A DNA stretch of 64,000 nt, from positions 15,728-79,727 of IMG/VR virus record IMGVR_UViG_2897059268_000002; one strand, given 5' to 3'. Each line of letters opens with the position of its first letter. Within the stretch, counting starts at the first letter, position 1. Origin of the DNA: a virus. Its lineage: Duplodnaviria > Caudoviricetes. The notes beneath the pieces were generated by a model. It was not told the DNA's origin, did no database searches, and saw only the letters and a list, made by a program, of their open reading frames with translations. Position numbers and translations under genes: made by a program. This document shows positions 4,426 through 62,712 of the stretch, one piece after another.

Positions 4426-4615
4426 CCGCCGACGACCGGCCTCCGCGGATCCCGCCGGACGCCCTGGCTGATCTCGATGACCTGCTCCCGCGCCGGCTTC
4501 CGCCGGACGTCCTCACGGATCTCGACGACCTGTGACCCACGCAGTACCGGCTGCCCCCGTTCGACCCGGGGGCAGCCGGCCCGCCCACCGTACCTGCACT
4601 CACCTGGAGCCGTTG

Positions 4616-4768
4616 ATGCCCACCTCACCCACCCCCGCCCCGGTCGCCCCTTCCGAGCTGGACATGTCGCGGGCCGTCATCGAGCACGCCCTGACCGTCT
4701 ACGGCTACAGCACCGACACCGCCCGCGGCCTCGTCGACCGGCTGATCGCCGAAGCGAGGGCCGAGTGA
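4616..4768 (+). CDS. Small hypothetical phage protein
   Basis: RBS GGAG, coupled to the next gene by TGATG. Confidence 0.5.
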   Translation: MPTSPTPAPVAPSELDMSRAVIEHALTVYGYSTDTARGLVDRLIAEARAE

Positions 4769-9780: not shown

Positions 9781-10665
9781 ATGCCGACCAGCAACCAGCC
9801 CCACCTCGCCAGCGAGTCTCCACGCCAAGACAAGAGGCTTACCGGACTCCACATCCTGGCCATCGTGGTGCTCCCTCCCGTCCTCTTCGCACAGATCGTT
9901 CTCGCTGTTGAATTTGGCGATGACCTAGCTAACGCTATCCGGGACGGCAGTCCCATCGCGCAGGCCCTTGTGTTCGGCGGCGGGCTATCAGTCATGTGGC
10001 TAGCAAGCTTGCTAGCCGACAGCACTGACCCCGAAGAAGGCGAGAGCAGGCAACGTCTCACTCAAGCAGAGTCCGCTCTCACTGACGCTCTCCGCGGGAG
10101 CTTGGCCCACCAGCCGCACGACTCCCTCCCTGACCTGCAACGGTCAGAGGGCAGCGAAGCCTCAGATGGCAACCGACCCCTCAGGCAAAGGCTCCTCGGG
10201 CTAGCAGAGTTATGGGAAGCTACCCACGCCCGCCTCGACCTTTACCACCACATCGCAACCGGCCAGGCCAAGACGTCTTTCCGGAACGCCCAGGTCGCCA
10301 TGGCCGCCGGCTTCTTCCTCCTGGTCGTCTTCGCTGGCATCGCCGTCTGGGCCAGCACCACCGCAGTCGCCATCGTGGCCGGCGGGCTCGGCGCCGTATC
10401 CGCGGCCCTCGCCGGCTACGTCGCCAGAACGTTCATCCGCTCCCAGGAGTCCGCCGCCACCCACCTCCGGTCCTACTTCGACCAACCGCTCGAACTCTCC
10501 CGCTACCTTGCCGCGGAACGGTTGGTTGCCGACGGAGACCTCACCCAAGAACAGCGTGGGGAAATCCTCTCCGCCCTCGTCCAAGCCATGGTCGCCGGAC
10601 CACAACCGCCAGCCCCAGCCCAGCCCGTCGTCCTCGCCTCCGTCCCAGGGCAACCAGGGGCGTGA
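9781..10665 (+). CDS. Membrane protein resembling the TRADD-N-associated TM domain
   Basis: Four hydrophobic segments; LDLYH...QAKTSFRNAQVAMAAGF...AALAGYVARTFIRSQE pattern. Confidence 0.6.
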   Translation: MPTSNQPHLASESPRQDKRLTGLHILAIVVLPPVLFAQIVLAVEFGDDLANAIRDGSPIAQALVFGGGLSVMWLASLLADSTDPEEGESRQRLTQAESALTDALRGSLAHQPHDSLPDLQRSEGSEASDGNRPLRQRLLGLAELWEATHARLDLYHHIATGQAKTSFRNAQVAMAAGFFLLVVFAGIAVWASTTAVAIVAGGLGAVSAALAGYVARTFIRSQESAATHLRSYFDQPLELSRYLAAERLVADGDLTQEQRGEILSALVQAMVAGPQPPAPAQPVVLASVPGQPGA

Positions 10666-11178: not shown

Positions 11179-11312
11179 TGCAGAAGCCCTGCGGGTGGCC
11201 AGCAGAAAGGGCCGGCGGGGAACCACCTCGCCGACGCCTCCTGGACGGGTAGTGGGCAGGACCGGATACGGCCGGGCAGCACCAGCTGCCCGGCCGTAAG
11301 AATCCGCAGAGG

Positions 11313-11792
11313 TCAGGCGCCCGCCGAGGACTGAACCCCCGCAAGGGCCTCCTCGATCACACCCAAGAACTCGCCCGCCGCATCCTGCCGCCACGCCGTC
11401 GCATGCAGAAACGCCTCCGCCAGCTCGGCGAACCCGTTCCGCTCACCCGCCGCCCGTTCCAACGCCCTCGCCACAGCAAACACTCGCCGCGACACCCGCT
11501 GCCGCTCCACCACCAGCTCCGCGAACGCCAACACCTCGGTCAGGGCGTGATCCGGCGACGCCTCCAGCACCAGACCACCACGCTTGTCCCGGAAGAACGA
11601 CAACGTCGACTCCCCGCCCGAGGAACTGTTCAGGCGCAGACTGATGCTGTGCTCCGCGGCGAACGCCCACAGCCTCGCGCCGACGTCCGCAGGCGAGGCC
11701 TGGGCCGGCGGCGGAGGGGGAACCGGGGCCGACAAGACCGAGGCGGAGGCGGGGGAGGACAGCACCGACGACTTGTTTCTTGTTACGCTCAC
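11313..11792 (-). CDS. Hypothetical protein
   Basis: 159-aa ORF with purine-rich RBS (GGAAGAAGG) upstream. Confidence 0.55.
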   Translation of the reverse strand: MSVTRNKSSVLSSPASASVLSAPVPPPPPAQASPADVGARLWAFAAEHSISLRLNSSSGGESTLSFFRDKRGGLVLEASPDHALTEVLAFAELVVERQRVSRRVFAVARALERAAGERNGFAELAEAFLHATAWRQDAAGEFLGVIEEALAGVQSSAGA

Positions 11793-11853
11793 GGATAGAC
11801 CTTCTTCCTGAGACGGAGCGGGTTGAAGACCAGCTGGTGATGCGGCTGGTCCC

Positions 11854-11882
11854 GGCCCAGGCGCCTGATACGCGCCTGGGCC
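11854..11882. other. Perfect 11-bp stem-loop
   Basis: GGCCCAGGCGC-ctgatac-GCGCCTGGGCC. Confidence 0.6.
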
Positions 11883-12042
11883 TCTTGCATGACCGGGGTG
11901 ATAGCCCGGGGTACTGCGAGCGCCAGGTGATGAGCCCGACGTGGGATGAGACTAGATCGCGCCAAGAGACACCTAGCGCACGATGATCCGAAAATAGCTA
12001 CCTCTCTCCTTGCAACTTTGACGGTTCCGACATGTTGGAAAC

Positions 12043-12671
12043 CGCAGGTCAGAGATCAGATTGACCCTTTCAGGAAGTCGCTGACCTCCTAGCTTTTCAC
12101 TTTGCTGGTGCCCGGATGATTGCCTAACTGGATTTCGGCAAGTACCTTCATCAGCCCGCAAAGCTGACCGAAACCCGACCACGGCCACCGGCCAGCATGC
12201 GCACGGTCCCCGACTCGCGATGCCACGTGGAAGGAACTTAGTTCAGGACAGCCAGTGCGAGACGCTGGACCGGCCATCTCTCTCTGTAGTTTCCTGCATG
12301 TCTTAATAGACAGAACGCGCAGGTCAGAGGACTCATTATCCCCCTCGGTGGACCGCTGACCTCCGACTTCCTTCACCTTCCGTTGCGTATTCGCGTTTCG
12401 GTGTGGTCCCTTTTAGTGCAGTTTTGGCGTAAATCTGGAACCTGGAAGATGTGTCCGGAAAATGGTCCTGCTCCCAGTCGCGCGCCACCCAAACGGAGCG
12501 CCTTGAAGTTCGGTACGAGGGAGAGGCTAGACCCGGCCACCCCAACTCCCTTCTGAACCAAAGGTGAAGTAGACACCCCGACCTCCACCCAACCCGCTCA
12601 TCCGAGCGCGAGTCGAAGGATGCTTCGCAGGTCAGGGCATGATCCCTCCGGACCGGCGCGCCCCTGACCTC
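12043..12671. repeat. Three spaced inverted-repeat units CGCAGGTCAG-N28-CTGACCTC
   Basis: Units at 12043-12088, 12318-12363 and 12626-12671; the spacer is exactly 28 nt in each. Confidence 0.85.
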
Positions 12672-12897
12672 GCACAACCCCTCAACACGAGGCTCATTTG
12701 TCGCCAGAAACGTTGCTTGCGCCTCCGCAAAACACCACAACCCAGGCGCGACCGGGTTGGCCGTAAACCCTCACTACAACCCCCATCCGTTCCGAGTGAG
12801 CCGACCATCAGGCAGCCGCAACCCCGTGCGGAGGAGGTGTGTATGAGGCGGCCACACCCAGACCAACGTGTCGGGCAGGTGCCGGGTTATGGACGAG

Positions 12898-13386
12898 TCA
12901 GGCAGCGGGGCGGAGGTCGGAGTTGTGGACGATGTTGTGCAGCGGGCGCTCTGACTTGATCGCGAGAGCTTCCGCAGCGAACGCCTCCGGCCGACTCCCG
13001 AACCACTCAATCGAGAAGTTCGCCACGTCCTGCCACCATGACTTGTCCTTCGCGTGCTCCGGCCAGCGGCGCAGCGGGTCGTCACTGATGCCGACGTAGA
13101 GGAGTTGCTGCGTGGTATCGCGAAGGCGGTAGACGGCCGTGGGAGCCGAGGGGAGGATCTTTCGTCGCCTGACCGTGAGCACGTAGTTCAACGGGGAGTC
13201 GTAGTCCTCTGCAGGCTCATAGAAGATGCCGGGCCCTGCTGACTTGCAATGCTCCCTACCGGTGCCCAGGTACTGCCAGTAGCGGAGGTACTCGGGGTAG
13301 AGCTCACGGAGGAACGGGTGAACACCTCCGGGGCGGATGGTGTCGTACAGGTCGTCGAGCGTGATGGGCTCGGATAGTTCGGTCAC
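12898..13386 (-). CDS. GIY-YIG nuclease family protein
   Basis: AVYRL...LLYVGISDDPLRRWPEH...AE..AI...P.HN. Confidence 0.85.
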   Translation of the reverse strand: MTELSEPITLDDLYDTIRPGGVHPFLRELYPEYLRYWQYLGTGREHCKSAGPGIFYEPAEDYDSPLNYVLTVRRRKILPSAPTAVYRLRDTTQQLLYVGISDDPLRRWPEHAKDKSWWQDVANFSIEWFGSRPEAFAAEALAIKSERPLHNIVHNSDLRPAA

Positions 13387-13458
13387 ACGAAGCTCCTTTC
13401 GGGCGCGGCAAAGGGTGGCGCCGAATGCGGACGGTGCCGCTTCGACTACTAGGAAGCG

Positions 13459-13484
13459 TAGCTCTATAGAGCAATTGAAAGCTA
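13459..13484. promoter_or_regulatory. Candidate GntR/KorSA-type operator, copy 1
   Basis: Palindrome GCTCTATAGAGC followed by AATTGAAAGCTA, between the divergent GIY-YIG and gntR genes. Confidence 0.6.
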
Positions 13485-13554
13485 GTGGTTCTCGCGAGAT
13501 CGGCTAGCCCGGTCGTTGACCAGGGGTGATGCGTAGCGGGTAGCGTTGCTCTAG

Positions 13555-14343
13555 ATGAATCCACCTATAGGAGCGCCCGTGGAACGCAAGGCCGGCGAAC
13601 GCAAGTACAGAGAGGTCGCCGATGACCTGCGTCGGCGCATCGCTGAGGGGGAGTTCAGCGAGGGGCGCCGCAAGCTTCCCTCGGAGCGCGACCTCGTTGA
13701 GCAGTACAAGGCGATCACCACTTCGGCGATGACCATCCGCCAGGCCTTGTCTGTTCTGCGGGATGAAGGTCTTGTCGAGTCGCGCGTGGGCTCGGGGTGG
13801 TACGTCGCGGAGTGGAAGCCCATCGTCAGGAACGCCCTGGACCGGCTCTTTCCGGATCGGTGGGGCGAGGCGGAGTCCATGTGGGACGTCGACATCGAAG
13901 GTCGCCGGCTCGACGTAGAAGACCTGCGCGTTCAGTTCGCTCCGGCTCCACCTGAAGCCGCCCGCGTCCTCGGCGTTGGATCCAAGGTCAAGGTGTGGCA
14001 CCGGGATCGCCGATACGTGGTGGACGGCGTGCCGGTCATGAGGGCCGCCTCCTACATCCCTGACGAGTTCGCTCGCGGCACCCAGATCACCGAGAGCGAC
14101 ACGGGGAAGGGTGGCGTCTACGCGAGGCTCCGCGAAGCAGGGCACGGACCTGTCAGCTTCCGTGAGCAGATGCGGGGCAGGCCTGCTACCGCAGCCGAGG
14201 TCGACGATCTCCGCCTGGCTAAGGGTGCGACCGTGATCGAGCAGCACAGGATCGCGAGACGTGAAGACGGCCGTGTCGTGGAGTGCAGCCGAATGATTCT
14301 GGACGCTTCTCGATACCTTCTTGTCTACGACTTCGAGGCCTGA
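13555..14343 (+). CDS. GntR family regulator with UTRA domain (KorSA/TraR-like transfer repressor)
   Basis: KYREVADDLRRRI...KLPSERDL...TIRQALSVLRDEGLVESRVGSGWYV wHTH plus UTRA; heads the transfer region. Confidence 0.9.
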   Translation: MNPPIGAPVERKAGERKYREVADDLRRRIAEGEFSEGRRKLPSERDLVEQYKAITTSAMTIRQALSVLRDEGLVESRVGSGWYVAEWKPIVRNALDRLFPDRWGEAESMWDVDIEGRRLDVEDLRVQFAPAPPEAARVLGVGSKVKVWHRDRRYVVDGVPVMRAASYIPDEFARGTQITESDTGKGGVYARLREAGHGPVSFREQMRGRPATAAEVDDLRLAKGATVIEQHRIARREDGRVVECSRMILDASRYLLVYDFEA

Positions 14344-14409: not shown

Positions 14410-14440
14410 CTCTATAGAGGCATTGATTGCTACATAGCAG
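14410..14440. promoter_or_regulatory. Candidate GntR/KorSA-type operator, copy 2, at the transfer-operon promoter
   Basis: CTCTATAGAG-GCATTGATTGCTA matches the 13462 site. Confidence 0.6.
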
Positions 14441-15952: not shown

Positions 15953-16165
15953 ATGGCCAGCGCCCGTCACTTCTTCAAGAGCCAGTCCGCCGAGCAGACC
16001 CGCGCCGACATCACCGCCGACATCAAGAACAGCCGCAAGGCGCAGCGTGAGGCTGCCGCGAACGGCCAGCACCGTGTCGCCGAGATGATGCGGCAGGGCG
16101 CCGACGAGGCCCTCGACGAGCTGAACCGGCTGAACGACGGCACGTGGAAGCCCAACCACGCATGA
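15953..16165 (+). CDS. Hypothetical protein of the transfer region
   Basis: RBS AAGGAG. Confidence 0.7.
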   Translation: MASARHFFKSQSAEQTRADITADIKNSRKAQREAAANGQHRVAEMMRQGADEALDELNRLNDGTWKPNHA

Positions 16166-16542
16166 GCATCGTCGGCATCATCTCGTTCGGCTTCCTGCAC
16201 GGTGAGCCCCCGGCCGCGCATCTGACGCTCGACCTGCGGCAGCACTTCCGGGACCCGCACGTGTCTCCGGAGCTGCGGTACATGACCGCGGCCGACGAAC
16301 CGGTGCAGCGGGCGGTCCTCGGAACCCCGGGCATCACCGGCCTGGTTGGGGCTGTGGCGGACGCGGTCTCCGCGTTCGCCGCGGGCCCCAGCGCCGGGCC
16401 CGTGACCGTTGCCGACGGGTGCGCGGGCGGCCGGCACCGGGCCCCCGTCTTCGCCCAGGCCCTCGCCGACCGGCTGACCGCCGACGGGCACACCGTCACC
16501 GTCCAGCACCGCGACCTGCACCGCCCCGTCGTCAACCGCTGA
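16162..16542 (+). CDS. RapZ C-terminal-domain-like protein
   Basis: SFGFLHG...DLRQHFRDP...GCAGGRHRA...VQHRDL matches the RapZ/YvcJ C-domain pattern. Confidence 0.8.
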   Translation: MSIVGIISFGFLHGEPPAAHLTLDLRQHFRDPHVSPELRYMTAADEPVQRAVLGTPGITGLVGAVADAVSAFAAGPSAGPVTVADGCAGGRHRAPVFAQALADRLTADGHTVTVQHRDLHRPVVNR

Positions 16543-18227: not shown

Positions 18228-18806
18228 ATGAGCACTGCCGCCGACCAGGGATGGCCCTGGGCAGGGCCCCAGCCTTCCGTCCCGCCCCGCCCGCGTACTG
18301 AACCCACCAATGGCACCCGGCCGACCAGCGTGGACAACTCGAAGACGCGCACCGGCGGCGGGTTCAACCCGTCGATCGGGCTCGCCGTGAACAAGACCGT
18401 CGTGAACGGCAAGGGTGCCCCCGCGGCCCCCGGTGCCGGCGCCGCAGGCGGTACCGGGGGGAAGGTTCCCGGCTCCGACTTCATGTCCAACGAGGACATC
18501 CGCGCGTTCTGCGAGTACCTCCGCAAGGAGTCCCGGAACCGGGCCACCGAGCGGGCCATGGACGCCGACCACCTCGAAGCGGTCCTCCGCACCATCCCCG
18601 ACGGGGGAGGCAGCCTCCACGGAGCCCGCGCCCGGGCCCGCCGGGTGTCCCGGTGGCTGCGGAAGGTCGCCGCCGCGGAGAAGAACATCCAGAAGTACAG
18701 CGCCATGATCTACGGCACGTTCGAGCGGGAGTACGAGTCCGACCTGCGGAAGGTCGGCAAGGGCCGCACCCAGCCGCCCCGCCCCACCAAGTTCGGCTGG
18801 CGCTAA
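18228..18806 (+). CDS. TraA-like plasmid transfer protein
   Basis: Immediately upstream of traB; ARARARRVSRWL...FEREYE pattern. Confidence 0.6.
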   Translation: MSTAADQGWPWAGPQPSVPPRPRTEPTNGTRPTSVDNSKTRTGGGFNPSIGLAVNKTVVNGKGAPAAPGAGAAGGTGGKVPGSDFMSNEDIRAFCEYLRKESRNRATERAMDADHLEAVLRTIPDGGGSLHGARARARRVSRWLRKVAAAEKNIQKYSAMIYGTFEREYESDLRKVGKGRTQPPRPTKFGWR

Positions 18807-18841
18807 CCACCCCCGACCACCACCTGATCAGGAGTACACCC

Positions 18842-20839
18842 GTGGCTGACAGCCAGAAGGCCGACCTGTGGAAGGCCATCAAGCACCCCCGCATGAGGCC
18901 CTGGCTGACCGTTGCCGCCGAGGTCCCCGCCACCTTCGCCTCCCACCACTACTGGGGGAACTCCGTACCCGCCGCGATCGGCCTCACCGTCGCCGCAGGG
19001 GTACTCACCGCTGCCACCTGGTGGGCAGGCGAAGGAACCCGGCCCGGGCGGCGTATCCACGCCACCCTGTCCACCGGCCTCGGCACCTCCTACCTCGTCG
19101 TCGGTACCGCCGTCGGCCCGTTCGACCCGGCGCTCGCCTCCACCCTCGTCATCGGCGGTGCCGTCGCCGCCGGGTCGTGGAACATCCGCCAGGCCCTCCG
19201 CGTCAACGTCGACCCGCAGAAGGCTGGCGGCAACGCCGAGACCGGGGTCCTCGTCAAGGCCATCGGCGAAGCCAAGGTCGCCCTCCGCGGCAAGCCGAAG
19301 ATCGAACCCAACAAGGTCACCGCACCCCTCCAGCTGTCCGCCGGGCAGGTCACCTCCGACGACCTCGGGAACCGCATCAAGCACATCGCCGGTGAACTCG
19401 GCGTCTCCCCGACCAGCATCCGCGTCATCCCCGACCCCGACGACGCCGCCCGCGCCACCCTCGTTGTCGTACCCAAGGACGAACTGAAGCAGCCCACTCC
19501 CTGGCCCGGCCCATCCGCTCCGGGCGGCAGCATCACCGACCCCATCGTCATCGGCATCTACGAAGACGGCGAGGAAACCCGACTGTGGTTCCCCGCCGGC
19601 CCGGGGCGGAACGCCACCCACTTCCTCACTGCGGGCATGAACGGCTCCGGGAAGTCCGCTGGCCAGTCCGTTGCAATCGCCGAGGCCCTGACCCGCCGCG
19701 ATGTCATCGTCTGGGCCGTTGACCCGTCCAAGGGCATGCAGACGTTCGCCCCGTTCCTGCCCCACCTCGACTGGGTCGAGATGACCGAGGCCGGCGGCAA
19801 CGAGATGATCGACGCCCTCACTCAGGTCATCACCGCCCGCGCCAACACCCTCGGGCAGCACGGCTACAAGAACTGGACCCCGCAGGCCCACGACCAGCTC
19901 GGCATGCCCTACCTGATCGTGTGGATCGAGGAGGCGGCCAAGTTCTTCCGCAACGGCACAGAGATGGAAGGCCTCGTCATGGAGGCCCGGTCCGCCGGGA
20001 TCAGCGTCATCATCAGCCTCCAGCGGCCCTCCGCCACCAGCATGCCCACCGACGTCCGCGAGCAGCTCGGCGGTGCCATCTGCTTCGGCGTCAAGGGCTC
20101 CACCACCGCCGACATGGCGCTCCCCGACGACGTTCGCGACGCCGGCGCCCGCCCCGAAGCGTGGGAGAACCGCAAGCCCGGCTACGCCTACCTCGTCGCC
20201 CCCGGCGTCGACGAAGACCGGTACGCCACCCCGCTGCGTACCTACCTCATCGACGACGACCAGATCACCGGGGCGCTCTCGATCCTGCCCCGCACCCCCA
20301 TCGACCCTGTTACCGCTGCCGCAGCCGGTGACGCCTACACCAACCGCACCCGATACGACGCTGACACCCCCCTGGCCAGCAACGACACTGACAGGCAGGA
20401 GAACGTCCTCATGAGCAAGGACGACAACGAGCAGGCCGAGAAGGCGCTGCTGGAGAAGCAGGTCGACCGGGAGATCGACGCCATGGTCGGCGACGACCCC
20501 GACGACGACGGGTTCGTTCCCGACGTTGACGCCGAGCAGGAGATCGCCCCGGTGAGCGAGGTGTGGTCGTTCGGGCAGGCCAAGGCCCCCGTCGAGGAGA
20601 AGACGCCGGAGGCCGGCATGGAGGCCCTGATGGCGATGCTGGCCGAGTTCCGGGCGGAGGAGCGGGAGTTCATCGGCCCGAAGGACTTCGGCCCGTTCGG
20701 GAAGGGGCAGCGCATCGGGAGGGCCCGTTCCTGGGTGTCAGGAACCCTCGGAGACCTGTCAGACGCCGGGATTCACCTGTCAGAAACGGACAAGCCGGGG
20801 GTGTACAGGCTGCTGTACCCGGAGCTGGCGGAGGTCTGA
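18842..20839 (+). CDS. traB: TraB, FtsK/SpoIIIE-like conjugative dsDNA translocase
   Basis: N-terminal TM segments, Walker A AGMNGSGKS, Walker B LIVWIEEAA, EARSAGISVIISLQRP, C-terminal wHTH. Confidence 0.9.
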   Translation: MADSQKADLWKAIKHPRMRPWLTVAAEVPATFASHHYWGNSVPAAIGLTVAAGVLTAATWWAGEGTRPGRRIHATLSTGLGTSYLVVGTAVGPFDPALASTLVIGGAVAAGSWNIRQALRVNVDPQKAGGNAETGVLVKAIGEAKVALRGKPKIEPNKVTAPLQLSAGQVTSDDLGNRIKHIAGELGVSPTSIRVIPDPDDAARATLVVVPKDELKQPTPWPGPSAPGGSITDPIVIGIYEDGEETRLWFPAGPGRNATHFLTAGMNGSGKSAGQSVAIAEALTRRDVIVWAVDPSKGMQTFAPFLPHLDWVEMTEAGGNEMIDALTQVITARANTLGQHGYKNWTPQAHDQLGMPYLIVWIEEAAKFFRNGTEMEGLVMEARSAGISVIISLQRPSATSMPTDVREQLGGAICFGVKGSTTADMALPDDVRDAGARPEAWENRKPGYAYLVAPGVDEDRYATPLRTYLIDDDQITGALSILPRTPIDPVTAAAAGDAYTNRTRYDADTPLASNDTDRQENVLMSKDDNEQAEKALLEKQVDREIDAMVGDDPDDDGFVPDVDAEQEIAPVSEVWSFGQAKAPVEEKTPEAGMEALMAMLAEFRAEEREFIGPKDFGPFGKGQRIGRARSWVSGTLGDLSDAGIHLSETDKPGVYRLLYPELAEV

Positions 20840-21017
20840 CACCTCGGGGTGTCAGCGCTGACACCCCCTCTGACCTGCGGTGACACCGTTCTGACACGGT
20901 TCTGACACTCCGAAGGTGTCAGAACCGGTGTCAGAAGCCCTCCGGAGGGCTGATTCCTATAGGTCATGCGCGTGCGCGCGCGTGGCCGCCCCCGCGATGA
21001 CACCCCAACCTGACACA
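20836..21017. repeat. clt-like locus (cis-acting locus of transfer) with TGACAC repeats
   Basis: (C)TGACAC at 20836, 20858, 20880, 20891, 20902, 20997, 21010 and inverted GGTGTCAG at 20848, 20915, 20927, directly after the traB stop. Confidence 0.8.
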
Positions 21018-23275: not shown

Positions 23276-24161
23276 CTGATCGTTTCAGAATGAGTTGAGC
23301 CGTGGGTCTTGCGCTCGACGATCTTGGTCGGCAGGGTGTCCGGCGTGCGTGCTGATCTTGTTCCGGATGACCTGTGGGAGCGGGTGGCCCCGCTGCTGCC
23401 GCCCGCCCCCGAACGGCGCCATCGCCACCCGGGGCGGCTGCGTGTTCCCGATCGAGTGGCGCTCGCCGGCGTCTTGTATGTGCTGCGGACCGGTGTCGCG
23501 TGGCGTGACGTCCCCGCGGAGGCGGTGGGCTGTTCCGGAGTGACGGCCTGGCGCCGACTGCGGGACTGGACCGAGGCTGGTGTCTGGCCGCGCCTGCACG
23601 CGGCCCTGTTGACCGAGCTTCGCCGCGCCGGCCTGCTGGACCTGGACGACTGCTCCGTGGACGGATCGCACGTCCGGGCGCTCAAAGGGGGGACCACGTC
23701 GGACCCTCGCCCGTCGATCGGGCCCGCTCCGGCTCGAAGCACCACCTGATCGTCGACCGTCACGGAACCCCGCTCGCCGTCACGCTCACCGGCGGTAACC
23801 GGCACGACGTCACCCAGCTCCTTCCTCTGCTCGACGCCGTTCCGTCGATCCGGGGTCTGCGGGGGCGTCCCCGTCGCAAGCCCCGGCGTCTGTATGCCGA
23901 CCGGGGCTACGACTTCGACAAGTACCGCCGCCTGCTGTGGAAGCGGGGCATCAAGCCGATGATCGCCCGGCGCGGCGTCGCCCACGGCTCCGGACTGGGC
24001 AAGGTGCGCTGGGTGGTCGAGCGCGCCTTCGCCTGGCTGCACCAGTTCAAACGACTCCGCACCCGCTACGAACGACGCGCCGATCTCCACCAGGGCCTGC
24101 TCGAACTGGCCTGCAGCCTCATATGCCTGCGCCGCCTCCGAACTTCATTCTGAAAGATCAG
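23276..24161 (+). mobile_element. IS5 family insertion sequence (886 bp)
   Basis: IRL CTGATCGTTTCAGAATGAG (23276-23294), IRR CTTCATTCTGAAAGATCAG (24143-24161), TAA on both sides. Confidence 0.92.
23345..24153 (+). CDS. IS5 family transposase in two frames joined by a programmed -1 frameshift
   Basis: DDLWERVAPLLP, YVLRTGVAW, DGSHVRA; AAAGGGGGG at 23684-23692; RWVVERAFAWL...RLRTRYER. Confidence 0.9.
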
Positions 24162-61707: not shown

Positions 61708-62712
61708 CTAGTTTTCCCATGACGGCGGTCGGCGGTGGGCGATCGCCTGAGAGATACGCAAAGCGGCAGCGATCAGGAACCTTTGGCAGTATGCGTATTC
61801 CTCGGCGTTCGGCGAGTAACCGGGAGGGGCGCTGATCCTGGCCTCGCTGTGCTGGTTGGGCCGGTAGACACTGGGGGTGAGCGAGTTGAACCGCCAGTAC
61901 TCGGAGTAGTCGATGCCGAGCGCAGTCAGCCGCGCTCCCCGCTGGAGAGCGACAACGGACTCCCTGAGTGTTACGTATTCCTCTGCGAGGGTGCTGGCCC
62001 CACGAACTGGCATGTGCTGATCGCGTTCTCGCGGCTGACGCAAGATCCTGGCAACATCACGCCGCGGGAGAGGAAACCTGATGTTCGTACCGAAGCTGAA
62101 GGGTGTACCGCTGAAGCTCGTGGGTTCACTCGCGCTCGCGAGGAGTTCATCGAACGCTTCTACAAGCCAGGCCATCGCTTTGACACGGTTCCCTGCCGCC
62201 TCCTGACCTGCGGCCTGCCGAACCTTGTCCCGGGTGTTCGGCTGTGGCACGAGGTCGATCATGTTGATTCCAGTGAAGGCAGTTCCGAAGACGCGAGGGG
62301 TGTTGTCCTCGAAGAACTGGGATGTGTCTGCGCGAGCCTGCCTGACCGTCTCAGCGGAGGGCATGGCTGCGGTGTGCTTGAAGGCGTTGCGTTGGTCCGT
62401 AAGCCGCTTGACGCCGATACGCCCAGCCAGGTCGACTCCGACAGGACCCGCCTTGTCGGGGTGCAGGTTGTCGTAGTAGCGGGCTACGAACTGACCACGG
62501 TCCGGTACGGAGATCCCGAGGTGCTCGCTGGTGAGGATGAGAAAGAACTCAACCGCGTCGTGGAAGGTGAGGATGCTCCCGGCTGACAGCGGGTCCGGGA
62601 GTTGAGACTGGTCCACGCCCTGCTGGACAAGCAGCCTGATGAAGGCGAGGCGCTGCATCGTCTCTGGCGTGATGGGCCGCTGGTTGATGGTGTCCTCCTG
62701 CTGGAACGACAA
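61708..62712 (-). CDS. HEPN-motif protein, candidate defence/abortive-infection RNase
   Basis: ILTFHDAVEFFL...RLTDQRNAFKH (RX4H); lower GC than flanks. Confidence 0.6.
   Translation of the reverse strand: MSFQQEDTINQRPITPETMQRLAFIRLLVQQGVDQSQLPDPLSAGSILTFHDAVEFFLILTSEHLGISVPDRGQFVARYYDNLHPDKAGPVGVDLAGRIGVKRLTDQRNAFKHTAAMPSAETVRQARADTSQFFEDNTPRVFGTAFTGINMIDLVPQPNTRDKVRQAAGQEAAGNRVKAMAWLVEAFDELLASASEPTSFSGTPFSFGTNIRFPLPRRDVARILRQPRERDQHMPVRGASTLAEEYVTLRESVVALQRGARLTALGIDYSEYWRFNSLTPSVYRPNQHSEARISAPPGYSPNAEEYAYCQRFLIAAALRISQAIAHRRPPSWEN

Follow-up and report, generated by a model that had tools for sequence, protein, structure and literature searches.

We analyzed a 64,000-nucleotide stretch of a Caudoviricetes genome (termed the window; bases 15728-79727 of the 79.7-kb IMG/VR record IMGVR_UViG_2897059268_000002, which is classed as a provirus and estimated to be complete), and focused on a block that carries an array of short paired words. 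Coordinates given below without a locus label are window positions. The block extends from 11793 to ~12897, between a gene for a 159-amino-acid protein, here called p159, and a gene for a GIY-YIG nuclease, both on the minus strand. It contains three units, each consisting exactly of CGCAGGTCAG, 28 nucleotides (nt) and CTGACCTC on the plus strand, with start-to-start distances of 275 and 308 bp. Each unit is 46 bp long and its two half-sites lie 35 bp apart, centre to centre. The arms, which can also be written CTGACCTC and CTGACCTG, are able to form a 7-bp stem around the 28-nt loop, with a conserved mismatch of C opposite C at the stem base. The main features of the locus are as follows.

11313..11792, minus strand: gene for p159, left of the block
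11854..11882: perfect hairpin of 11 bp and a 7-nt loop, located 189 nt to the left of unit 1
11952..12533: pair of ~290-bp modules in tandem, with a central unit in each
11952, 12237 and 12527: CTAGATC-like words at module boundaries, read by eye; module 3 then extends to ~12850
12043..12088, plus strand: unit 1, arms and 28 nt
12318..12363, plus strand: unit 2, N = 28, with loop core ATTATCCCCCTCG
12626..12671, plus strand: unit 3, N = 28
12898..13386, minus strand: gene for the GIY-YIG nuclease, 162 amino acids

The three units are real and far from chance. The pattern AGGTCAG-N20-40-CTGACCT has three matches in the window, compared with 0.00 in 100 dinucleotide shuffles, and the full record holds no match beyond these three. 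A first-pass annotation of this DNA had reported the units with their spacers and distances, and all of these proved exact. It was likewise accurate in describing the perfect 11-nt arms of the hairpin, the lower GC content of the block (0.602 in 12001-13000, compared with ~0.68 around it), the identity of the nuclease (Pfam 2e-6; 28.4 bits, with the cut-off at 22.6) and the orphan nature of p159, which has no match in Pfam, PHROG or NCBIfam. The two lone half-sites that it listed at 14340 and 20870 are exact copies of the 10-mer, and a further one is present at 62203; all three are on the minus strand.

No Pfam match was obtained for the open reading frames (ORFs) tested in the block. Searches of Rfam gave 0 matches at gathering score for the window as a whole and, at E≤10, nothing but noise for the block. 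A blastn search of the block against plasmid and phage collections yielded no match at 1e-3 and only chance matches at E≤10.

Distribution and history of the units

Scanning IMG/VR for the exact pattern with N = 15-45 produced 49 matches, spread over 48 loci; five of these matches, in four loci, belong to four phage records that share flanks by blastn. Record G406 was added by a flank-word scan of viral contigs (among the matches listed), and a metagenome scan added one contig, L371 (MG371). The family loci are the window, G002, G003, G004, G005, G406 and L371, which makes at least seven related loci with one to three units each. They hold 10 full units, with N = 28 in seven, N = 29 in two and N = 38 in one (G005). 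The 3′ arm of G406 reads CTGACCAC. A common layout is found in all seven loci: a leftward gene, the 11-bp hairpin, one to three units and, directly adjoining the block, a minus-strand GIY-YIG gene. A gene for a GntR/UTRA regulator then follows in the six loci checked (the window, G002-G005 and L371). Thus, the suspected linkage of the units to this gene pair holds in 7/7 and 6/6 checked loci, respectively.

Searches of wider scope returned little else. Among genome contigs, N = 28 occurs in 5 of the 120 pattern matches listed, which is only background. The 401 Streptomycetaceae genomes yielded 31 pattern matches, compared with 15 for a reversed control; N = 28 occurs in six of the 31, four of which are one sequence in four genomes. 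Metagenomes contributed one related locus among 104 with N = 28-29. No match was obtained when the DNA was compared with 63 genomes from a single genus-level group of Streptomyces, and a single-protein locus search with p159 recovered only G002 and G003. None of the 31 matches in Streptomycetaceae resembles the units, which does not support the first-pass description of the motif as widespread in mobile DNA of Streptomyces. The peak at N = 28 that had been proposed as a check is present in the related loci (7/10 units), but there is none outside the lineage among the pattern matches listed. The element therefore appears to be specific to this lineage, and not common in Streptomyces. The loops fare no better as queries, as their comparison with phage and plasmid collections produced one 25-nt match at chance level (E = 8). 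Full-text literature matches to either 10-mer include, among the matches listed and in the excerpts available, none on Streptomyces, phages or plasmids, and the literature on the Streptomyces plasmid pCQ3 has nothing on the region corresponding to the block.

The modules of the window have separate counterparts among its relatives. Module 1, with unit 1, corresponds to the first module and first unit of G002 (83% identity over 912 bp, including the p159 gene). Module 2 matches the lone module present in G003 and in G004, and unit 2 corresponds to their single unit in both loop and flanks. Module 3 corresponds to the second module of G002 (89%), and the loop of unit 3 differs from that of G002 unit 3 at 2 of 28 positions. 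The window thus carries in tandem two module versions that relatives have singly. Units 1 and 2 had been taken for an old duplication; a simple one is contradicted by the match of module 2 to G003/G004 and of module 1 to G002. Module borders lie ~90-150 nt away from the unit hairpins.

Arms and loops have had different fates. The arms are identical where flanks have dropped to ~66-70% identity and loops are unrelated. For the loops, at least seven unrelated sequences are found across the family, and orthologous units of close relatives have near-identical ones. The earlier description of the spacer as free is therefore correct for the family as a whole, but not for orthologous units such as unit 3 and its G002 counterpart.

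Arms as sequence or as structure

To compare the arms we aligned nine units from six loci, leaving out the G005 unit (N = 38), although its arms are the same. Six of the seven arm pairs never vary, and the seventh departs by one unpaired cell, such that 62 of the 63 cells are paired and a change on both sides is seen in 0/7 pairs. The 11-bp hairpin, which is present in 7/7 loci at 189-194 nt from the first unit, is 100% paired and exists in two stem versions, with 4 of its 11 pairs changed on both sides; short T-runs then follow on the plus strand. The hairpin is a genuine structural element and would act either as a terminator oriented toward the leftward gene or as part of a leader. Because the hairpin co-varies in the same loci, these genomes have diverged enough to show covariation where structure matters, and the hairpin can serve as an internal control for the arms. 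When the units are folded as single strands, on both strands (20 folds), z-scores range from -2.67 to +0.54, with G406 and MG371 near 0. The units thus fold little or no better than shuffles.

The 10-mer is also found outside the paired arrangement. Five records contain 18 exact copies, compared with three of a reversed-word control. Of these 18, 14 are located within the block or within regions that resemble clt, the locus of conjugative transfer in Streptomyces plasmids. The lone copies at 14340 and 62203 in the window are within chance expectation. One module type, U4 (in G003, G005 and G406), has the 10-mer without the distal arm: in G003 there is no nearby partner, and in G005 and G406 the word forms a tight palindrome (CAGGTCAGTGACCTG and CAGGTCGCTGACCTG, respectively). 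The clt-like regions are rich in repeats and lie 3′ of three different TraB/FtsK-type genes with differing 8-mer repeats. The 10-mer occurs among TGACACC repeats in the window and G406, reversed, as CGCAGGTCAG-N31-CAGACCTC; among CCCTGCCC repeats in G002 and G005; and among CTGCTCAA repeats in G004, with an inverted partner 74 nt off. The copy at 20870 in the window belongs to such a region, which has these features.

18653-20839: traB (NCBIfam NF041214)
20831..20879, minus strand: unit-like element of CGCAGGTCAG, 31 nt and CAGACCTC, at the end of traB and within the TGACACC cluster
20837-20933: TGACACC cluster directly after the traB stop, with 6 of the 16 window copies in 97 bp

TGACACC is the DC1 word of the pWTY27 clt and is bound by the translocase of that plasmid, according to passages of PMC3583192.

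Our preferred reading, which we hold tentatively and with less than even confidence, is that the units act in cis as double-stranded DNA sites recognized by their sequence rather than their shape, and that only the length of the spacer is under constraint. Double-stranded sites are favored because the arms are invariant without covariation while the neighboring hairpin co-varies, because folding is weak, and because the 10-mer also serves on its own, within tight palindromes and inside regions resembling clt. A constraint on spacer length only is suggested because N is mostly kept while at least seven loop sequences are unrelated. In such a scheme, the primary recognition word would be the asymmetric 10-mer (C)CGCAGGTCAG, paired within the block with the inverted 8-mer CTGACCTC at a fixed distance, with the 28 bp as spacer. 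One to three of these sites, each in the middle of a ~290-bp module, would lie between the nuclease gene and the leftward p159 operon, in what we infer to be a control region, and the same 10-mer would mark the clt-like DNA-transfer site. The presence of the word there suggests a link to DNA handling during transfer. Both unit arms might be bound by a factor common to all of these mosaic elements. This factor would most likely be host-encoded, or else be the GIY-YIG core, because no element-encoded DNA-binding protein is conserved and the GIY-YIG core is the sole domain found beside the block in 7/7 loci. Several units could jointly build a nucleoprotein complex that silences or insulates promoters of the block, or that marks the block, like clt, as a place of DNA handling.

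The first-pass annotation had offered two explanations for the fixed geometry. Its bipartite protein-binding sites are favored here in their general form, whereas the origin, partition or recombination roles attached to them are unsupported: a lambda-O-like initiator and DnaB are encoded at 86-2340, no Par protein was seen among the ORFs scanned, and module borders do not coincide with the hairpins. Its second option, RNA stems whose loops act as guides for or antitoxins of the nuclease, does not agree with near-identical loops beside nucleases that are 41-43% identical, nor with the lack of loop targets in the element's own genome, where we found none beyond chance 10-12-mers. RNA guides are thus unlikely.

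Several observations weigh against double-stranded sites bound by a common factor. The tight palindrome is not frequent in hosts, with 21 sites in 19 of 61 Streptomycetaceae genomes compared with 11 control sites in 10, and six CAGGTCA(C/G)TGACCTG sites that we inspected are in mixed contexts, two of them right after apparent tRNA 3′ ends. No protein with a DNA-binding domain is well conserved across all five records. A simple dimer would not usually have half-sites 35 bp apart. In a by-eye reading, the loop of unit 1 shows compensatory changes between the window and G002 at two pairs of an inner 4-bp stem, such that this loop may fold, and the pyrimidine-rich loops of several units would also suit RNA. 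Finally, the family has few members, and several of its units arose by recent copying from one another.

Two related proposals were set aside. The tight palindrome does not support a host regulator that commands a large regulon, given the weak excess and mixed contexts. An argument from helical phasing was dropped: the clt pair of G004 has N = 74, and only 28 versus 38 (+10) fits, which is a single case.

The palindromes next to apparent tRNA genes merit separate mention. At L581:1459-1473 and L583:1481-1495, in two Streptomycetaceae genomes, CAGGTCA(G/C)TGACCTG with a 9-bp stem follows an apparent tRNA 3′ end (..GGTTCGATTC..CTCCA) and is itself followed by GTCTAGACC. This arrangement may represent a conserved tRNA terminator or an attachment region.

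Candidate expression signals in the block bear on whether the units are transcribed.

12120..12148, plus strand: promoter-like TTGCCT-17 nt-TACCTT, 31 nt right of unit 1, a reading from the alignment
12738..12759, minus strand: terminator-like hairpin and T-run downstream of the GIY-YIG gene, kept in G002
12830..12959, plus strand: GGAGGAGG, then ATG (12843) and a small ORF; ORFs read by eye

Both hexamers of the promoter-like element are kept in 6/6 first-unit modules, and its direction is toward the nuclease gene. A consensus promoter scan reported 0 promoter-like sites in the block, this element included, and by-eye inspection of both strands in or upstream of the units found nothing consistent. 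A scan of 11200-13700 for intrinsic terminators returned only 12759-12738 and none at the units, whose loops are 28 nt. The word GGAGGAGG is a strong ribosome-binding word located 5 nt before the ATG of a 38-codon ORF that runs antisense into the 3′ end of the nuclease gene. This start region at 12830 is kept in G002 and G004, whose 45-46-codon ORFs are alike and begin with MRRP. The ORF may represent a small gene; alternatively, it may hint at convergent transcription directed against the nuclease. Small ORFs within modules 1 and 2 are not conserved in relatives.

Alternative explanations

An RNA function is the rival to which we give most credence, and we consider it unlikely rather than negligible. 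The units would be hairpins in a regulatory leader or small RNA, with pyrimidine-rich plus-strand loops pairing with ribosome-binding sites, or a sense/antisense pair controlling the p159 operon or the nuclease; the arms would be held constant by an RNA-binding protein or RNase. This would account for a 7-bp stem that forms in every unit, for the compensatory changes in unit 1 and for the CCCUUUC, CCCCCUC, CCCUCC or CUCUUU tracts in several loops, and the conserved promoter-like element together with the Shine-Dalgarno-ATG small ORF suggests plus-strand transcription of the block. Passages of PMC7157519 moreover describe non-coding transcribed regions as replication origins in mycobacteriophage prophages. 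However, the arms lack the covariation of the neighboring hairpin, the z-scores of folding are weak, with two units close to zero, the loops of G406 and MG371 have no pyrimidine tract, and no Rfam family matches. The 10-mer also occurs without a pairing partner and in both orientations, and the promoter-like element is located downstream of the first unit, from which it is directed away. Alternatively, the units might be DNA hairpins or cruciforms recognized or cut by the adjacent GIY-YIG nuclease, as homing or exclusion targets or as recombination nick sites with an allele-specific loop. The nuclease gene adjoins every block and encodes the only protein domain linked in all loci, its DNA-binding part is swapped between phages, modules are gained and lost in a mosaic region, and the C-opposite-C mismatch at the stem base is conserved. 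Nonetheless, the idea is improbable, as the loops do not co-vary with the nuclease: those of G003 and G004 differ by one insertion and one substitution beside nucleases of different architecture that are 41% identical over 80 residues, and those of unit 3 in the window and G002 are nearly the same beside nucleases that are 43% identical. The 10-mer is also present 8-9 kb off in clt-like regions, a 7-bp stem with a 28-nt loop extrudes poorly, and module borders are not at hairpins.

More doubtful still is a plasmid-type replication origin or copy-control region with the units as iteron-like initiator sites. The low GC content of the block would suit an origin. The syntenic place in the plasmids pCQ3 and pCQ4 (with an endonuclease gene, a GntR gene and traA/traB to its right) is occupied by a 453-amino-acid initiator-like ORF with internal repeats, and the leftward operon of G002 encodes a 261-amino-acid protein that matches replication-initiator PHROGs (3e-11). 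The theta origin of pWTY27 is likewise a 300-bp non-coding stretch with RepA on a long inverted repeat, as given in passages of PMC3583192. Against this, the window has no initiator gene beside the block, its lambda-O-like initiator and DnaB being encoded at 86-2340, and identical arms are shared by elements in which the candidate initiators differ or are lacking. With only three repeats at distances of 275-308 bp, the units are not an iteron array, and the records are integrated proviruses with an integrase. There is only a slim chance that the units are functionless, with arms preserved as short identical words by recent exchange and gene conversion between mosaic phages. Intergenic stretches elsewhere likewise reach 95-99% identity across the five records, and several units have been copied recently from one another, but arms that stay identical amid diverged flanks and unrelated loops, with spacing kept, and a word that recurs in three unrelated clt contexts speak against it. 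We give equally little credence to the most far-reaching idea, that the units are address tags for fast-diversifying GIY-YIG nucleases: the arms and mismatch would present the 28-nt loop, as DNA or transcript, and the swapped DNA-binding part would read it as self or non-self. If so, related phage-plasmids in one mycelium would cut or exclude each other's alleles, the present element with two alleles in tandem would be doubly immune, and the tag in clt would tie in conjugative spread.

The units share some features with known systems and differ from them in others. The clt loci of pWTY27, pSVH1, pJV1 and pIJ101 consist of TraB/TraA recognition repeats and inverted repeats, that is, of direct and inverted cis-acting double-stranded DNA words, and the 10-mer lies within clt-like regions of the window and four relatives. 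Unlike clt, the units (12043-12671) are ~8 kb from traB, and only the lone 10-mer at 20870 falls within the clt-like region. The unit arms moreover differ from the local TraB word TGACACC and are unchanged in relatives with other translocases and 8-mers (CCCTGCCC, CTGCTCAA), and the clt regions of pWTY27 and pCQ3 lack the 10-mer. The operators of GntR/HutC regulators of the Kor/TraR type come to mind as a GntR/UTRA gene adjoins the block, and the half-site GGTCA..TGACC presumably resembles a GntR-family operator; however, the operator-like palindrome changes with the regulator, whereas the unit arms are the same in all. Integron attC sites share conserved inverted core words with a variable centre, and module number varies among relatives, but no integron integrase is present, the borders of modules lie away from the hairpins and modules carry no cassette genes. 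The unit words also do not fit what we take to be the attC core consensus. CRISPR-like or guide arrays differ in that no loop here has a target beyond chance in its own genome or in the phage and plasmid collections searched, and the loops do not track the nuclease.

Two further systems offer partial parallels. The sps site is a 12-bp palindrome on dissimilar Streptomyces plasmids, bound by the small, variable SpdA and with a mild role in stability (passages of PMC4170104). Like the 10-mer, it is one short palindromic word that is constant across divergent Streptomyces mobile elements in one to three copies, although sps is compact and, in those passages, mostly inside spdA, whereas the unit arms are 28 bp apart. 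The extrachromosomal prophage origins of mycobacteriophages (Wetzel et al. 2020, PMC7157519) are similarly gene-less blocks of several hundred bp in an actinophage, beside maintenance genes. As described in passages of that paper, they are defined by transcription and deletion phenotypes, are next to parABS and belong to non-integrating prophages; the records of the present family are integrated. The repeat geometry of the units is not described in those passages.

Streptomyces phage-plasmid hybrids (pZL12 and replicons of the pCQ3/pCQ4 type) are barely studied, and here a delimited, conserved cis element links a nuclease/GntR control region to a DNA-transfer site. If, as we infer, a common factor binds it, the element would offer a shared handle on regulation, maintenance or transfer of this mosaic group, and the 46-bp site might serve as a compact orthogonal binding module for Streptomyces genetics. 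Its reach is modest, with at least seven loci and a putative function.

Neighboring genes and the host element

The GIY-YIG domain of the window nuclease covers residues 84-147, and the N-terminal 80 residues have no domain assignment. The domain is fused to a GntR-type winged helix in G002, G004 and G005 and, more weakly, in G406 and L371, with some scores below Pfam cut-offs. The winged helix is absent from the nucleases of the window and G003, and that of G003 also lacks the N-terminal part of the window type. The nuclease slot thus looks like a swap site for DNA-binding parts. Fusions and regulator features are listed below.

L212:6757-7779 (minus), L214:5605-6159 (plus) and L215:6497-7225 (minus): GIY-YIG/winged-helix fusions
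L292:1421-2056 (minus) and L371:780-1367 (plus): weaker fusions
13555..14343, plus strand: GntR/UTRA (HutC-type) regulator, by profile match
13462-13471 and 14410-14419: palindrome CTCTATAGAG, exactly twice in the window, flanking the GntR gene

The palindrome flanking the GntR gene is replaced by CTCCTTCGAAGGAG in G003 and G005 and by a repeated word, CACTTGCATAGCCAAGT, in G002. These palindromes are likely operators of a Kor/TraR-like regulator. The standalone GntR protein is ruled out as binder of the unit arms, as its own palindromes vary by phage and the arms are invariant. The N-terminus of p159 (..VLSAPVPPPPPAP..) is common to the leftward gene of five phage records, and the C-terminal parts differ.

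The window has a GC content of ~68%. Its record begins on the left with an integrase, cI-like and cro-like helix-turn-helix (HTH) genes, an antirepressor, WhiB and a C5 methylase; the integrase, at the far left end, is phage-type and the only tyrosine integrase found. A terminase, a portal protein, a 1599-amino-acid ORF of tape-measure size and a lysin are encoded in the right half of the window. Between the initiator/DnaB genes and these late genes lies a plasmid-type module comprising the GntR/UTRA gene, an excisionase-type HTH gene, traA and traB, with the clt-like region after traB. TraA passes NCBIfam NF041213 (100.6 against a cut-off of 80) and TraB passes NF041214 (834.7 bits against 800), such that a complete Streptomyces plasmid transfer set is present inside a prophage at 18228-20940. 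TraB is 71-73% identical to its counterparts in the circular Streptomyces plasmids pCQ4 and pCQ3, which also encode terminase, portal and capsid. Because phage structural genes are combined with TraA and TraB proteins close to those of these capsid-bearing plasmids, the element is a temperate phage equipped with a conjugation module of the Streptomyces type, comparable to plasmid-phages. Passages of PMC3583192 and PMC7157519 apply the name plasmid-phage to pZL12.

Mosaicism across the records is extreme. Over its left 18 kb the record shows 95-100% identity with G002 and, in part, with G004. The structural half of the window and its TraB have no counterpart in G002-G005 at E<1e-5, save partial matches of the tape-measure-sized ORF and of TraB and one weak match; for TraB this is only a partial match of 34%, in G003. 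No tRNA or tmRNA was found in the window, and PADLOC defence-system models gave only faint GIY-YIG and excisionase-type matches.

Several minor features of the window were also observed. A RapZ C-terminal domain is encoded as a stand-alone 132-amino-acid protein at 16144-16542 on the plus strand (Pfam 6.7e-25) and was not found in four relatives. The stretch at 23309-24153, which separates the transfer module from the late genes, holds fragments of an IS4/IS5-type transposase (DUF4096, then a DDE C-terminus in another ORF). The intergenic region at 4533-4620, which contains a 13-bp GC hairpin, is 95-99% identical and in the same relative place in all five phage records, and its flanking genes differ. 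Finally, a 13-bp perfect hairpin, ACGGCCGGGCAGC .. GCTGCCCGGCCGT, is located at 11270-11300, between a convergent 294-amino-acid ORF (9781-10665) and p159, and looks like a two-way terminator.

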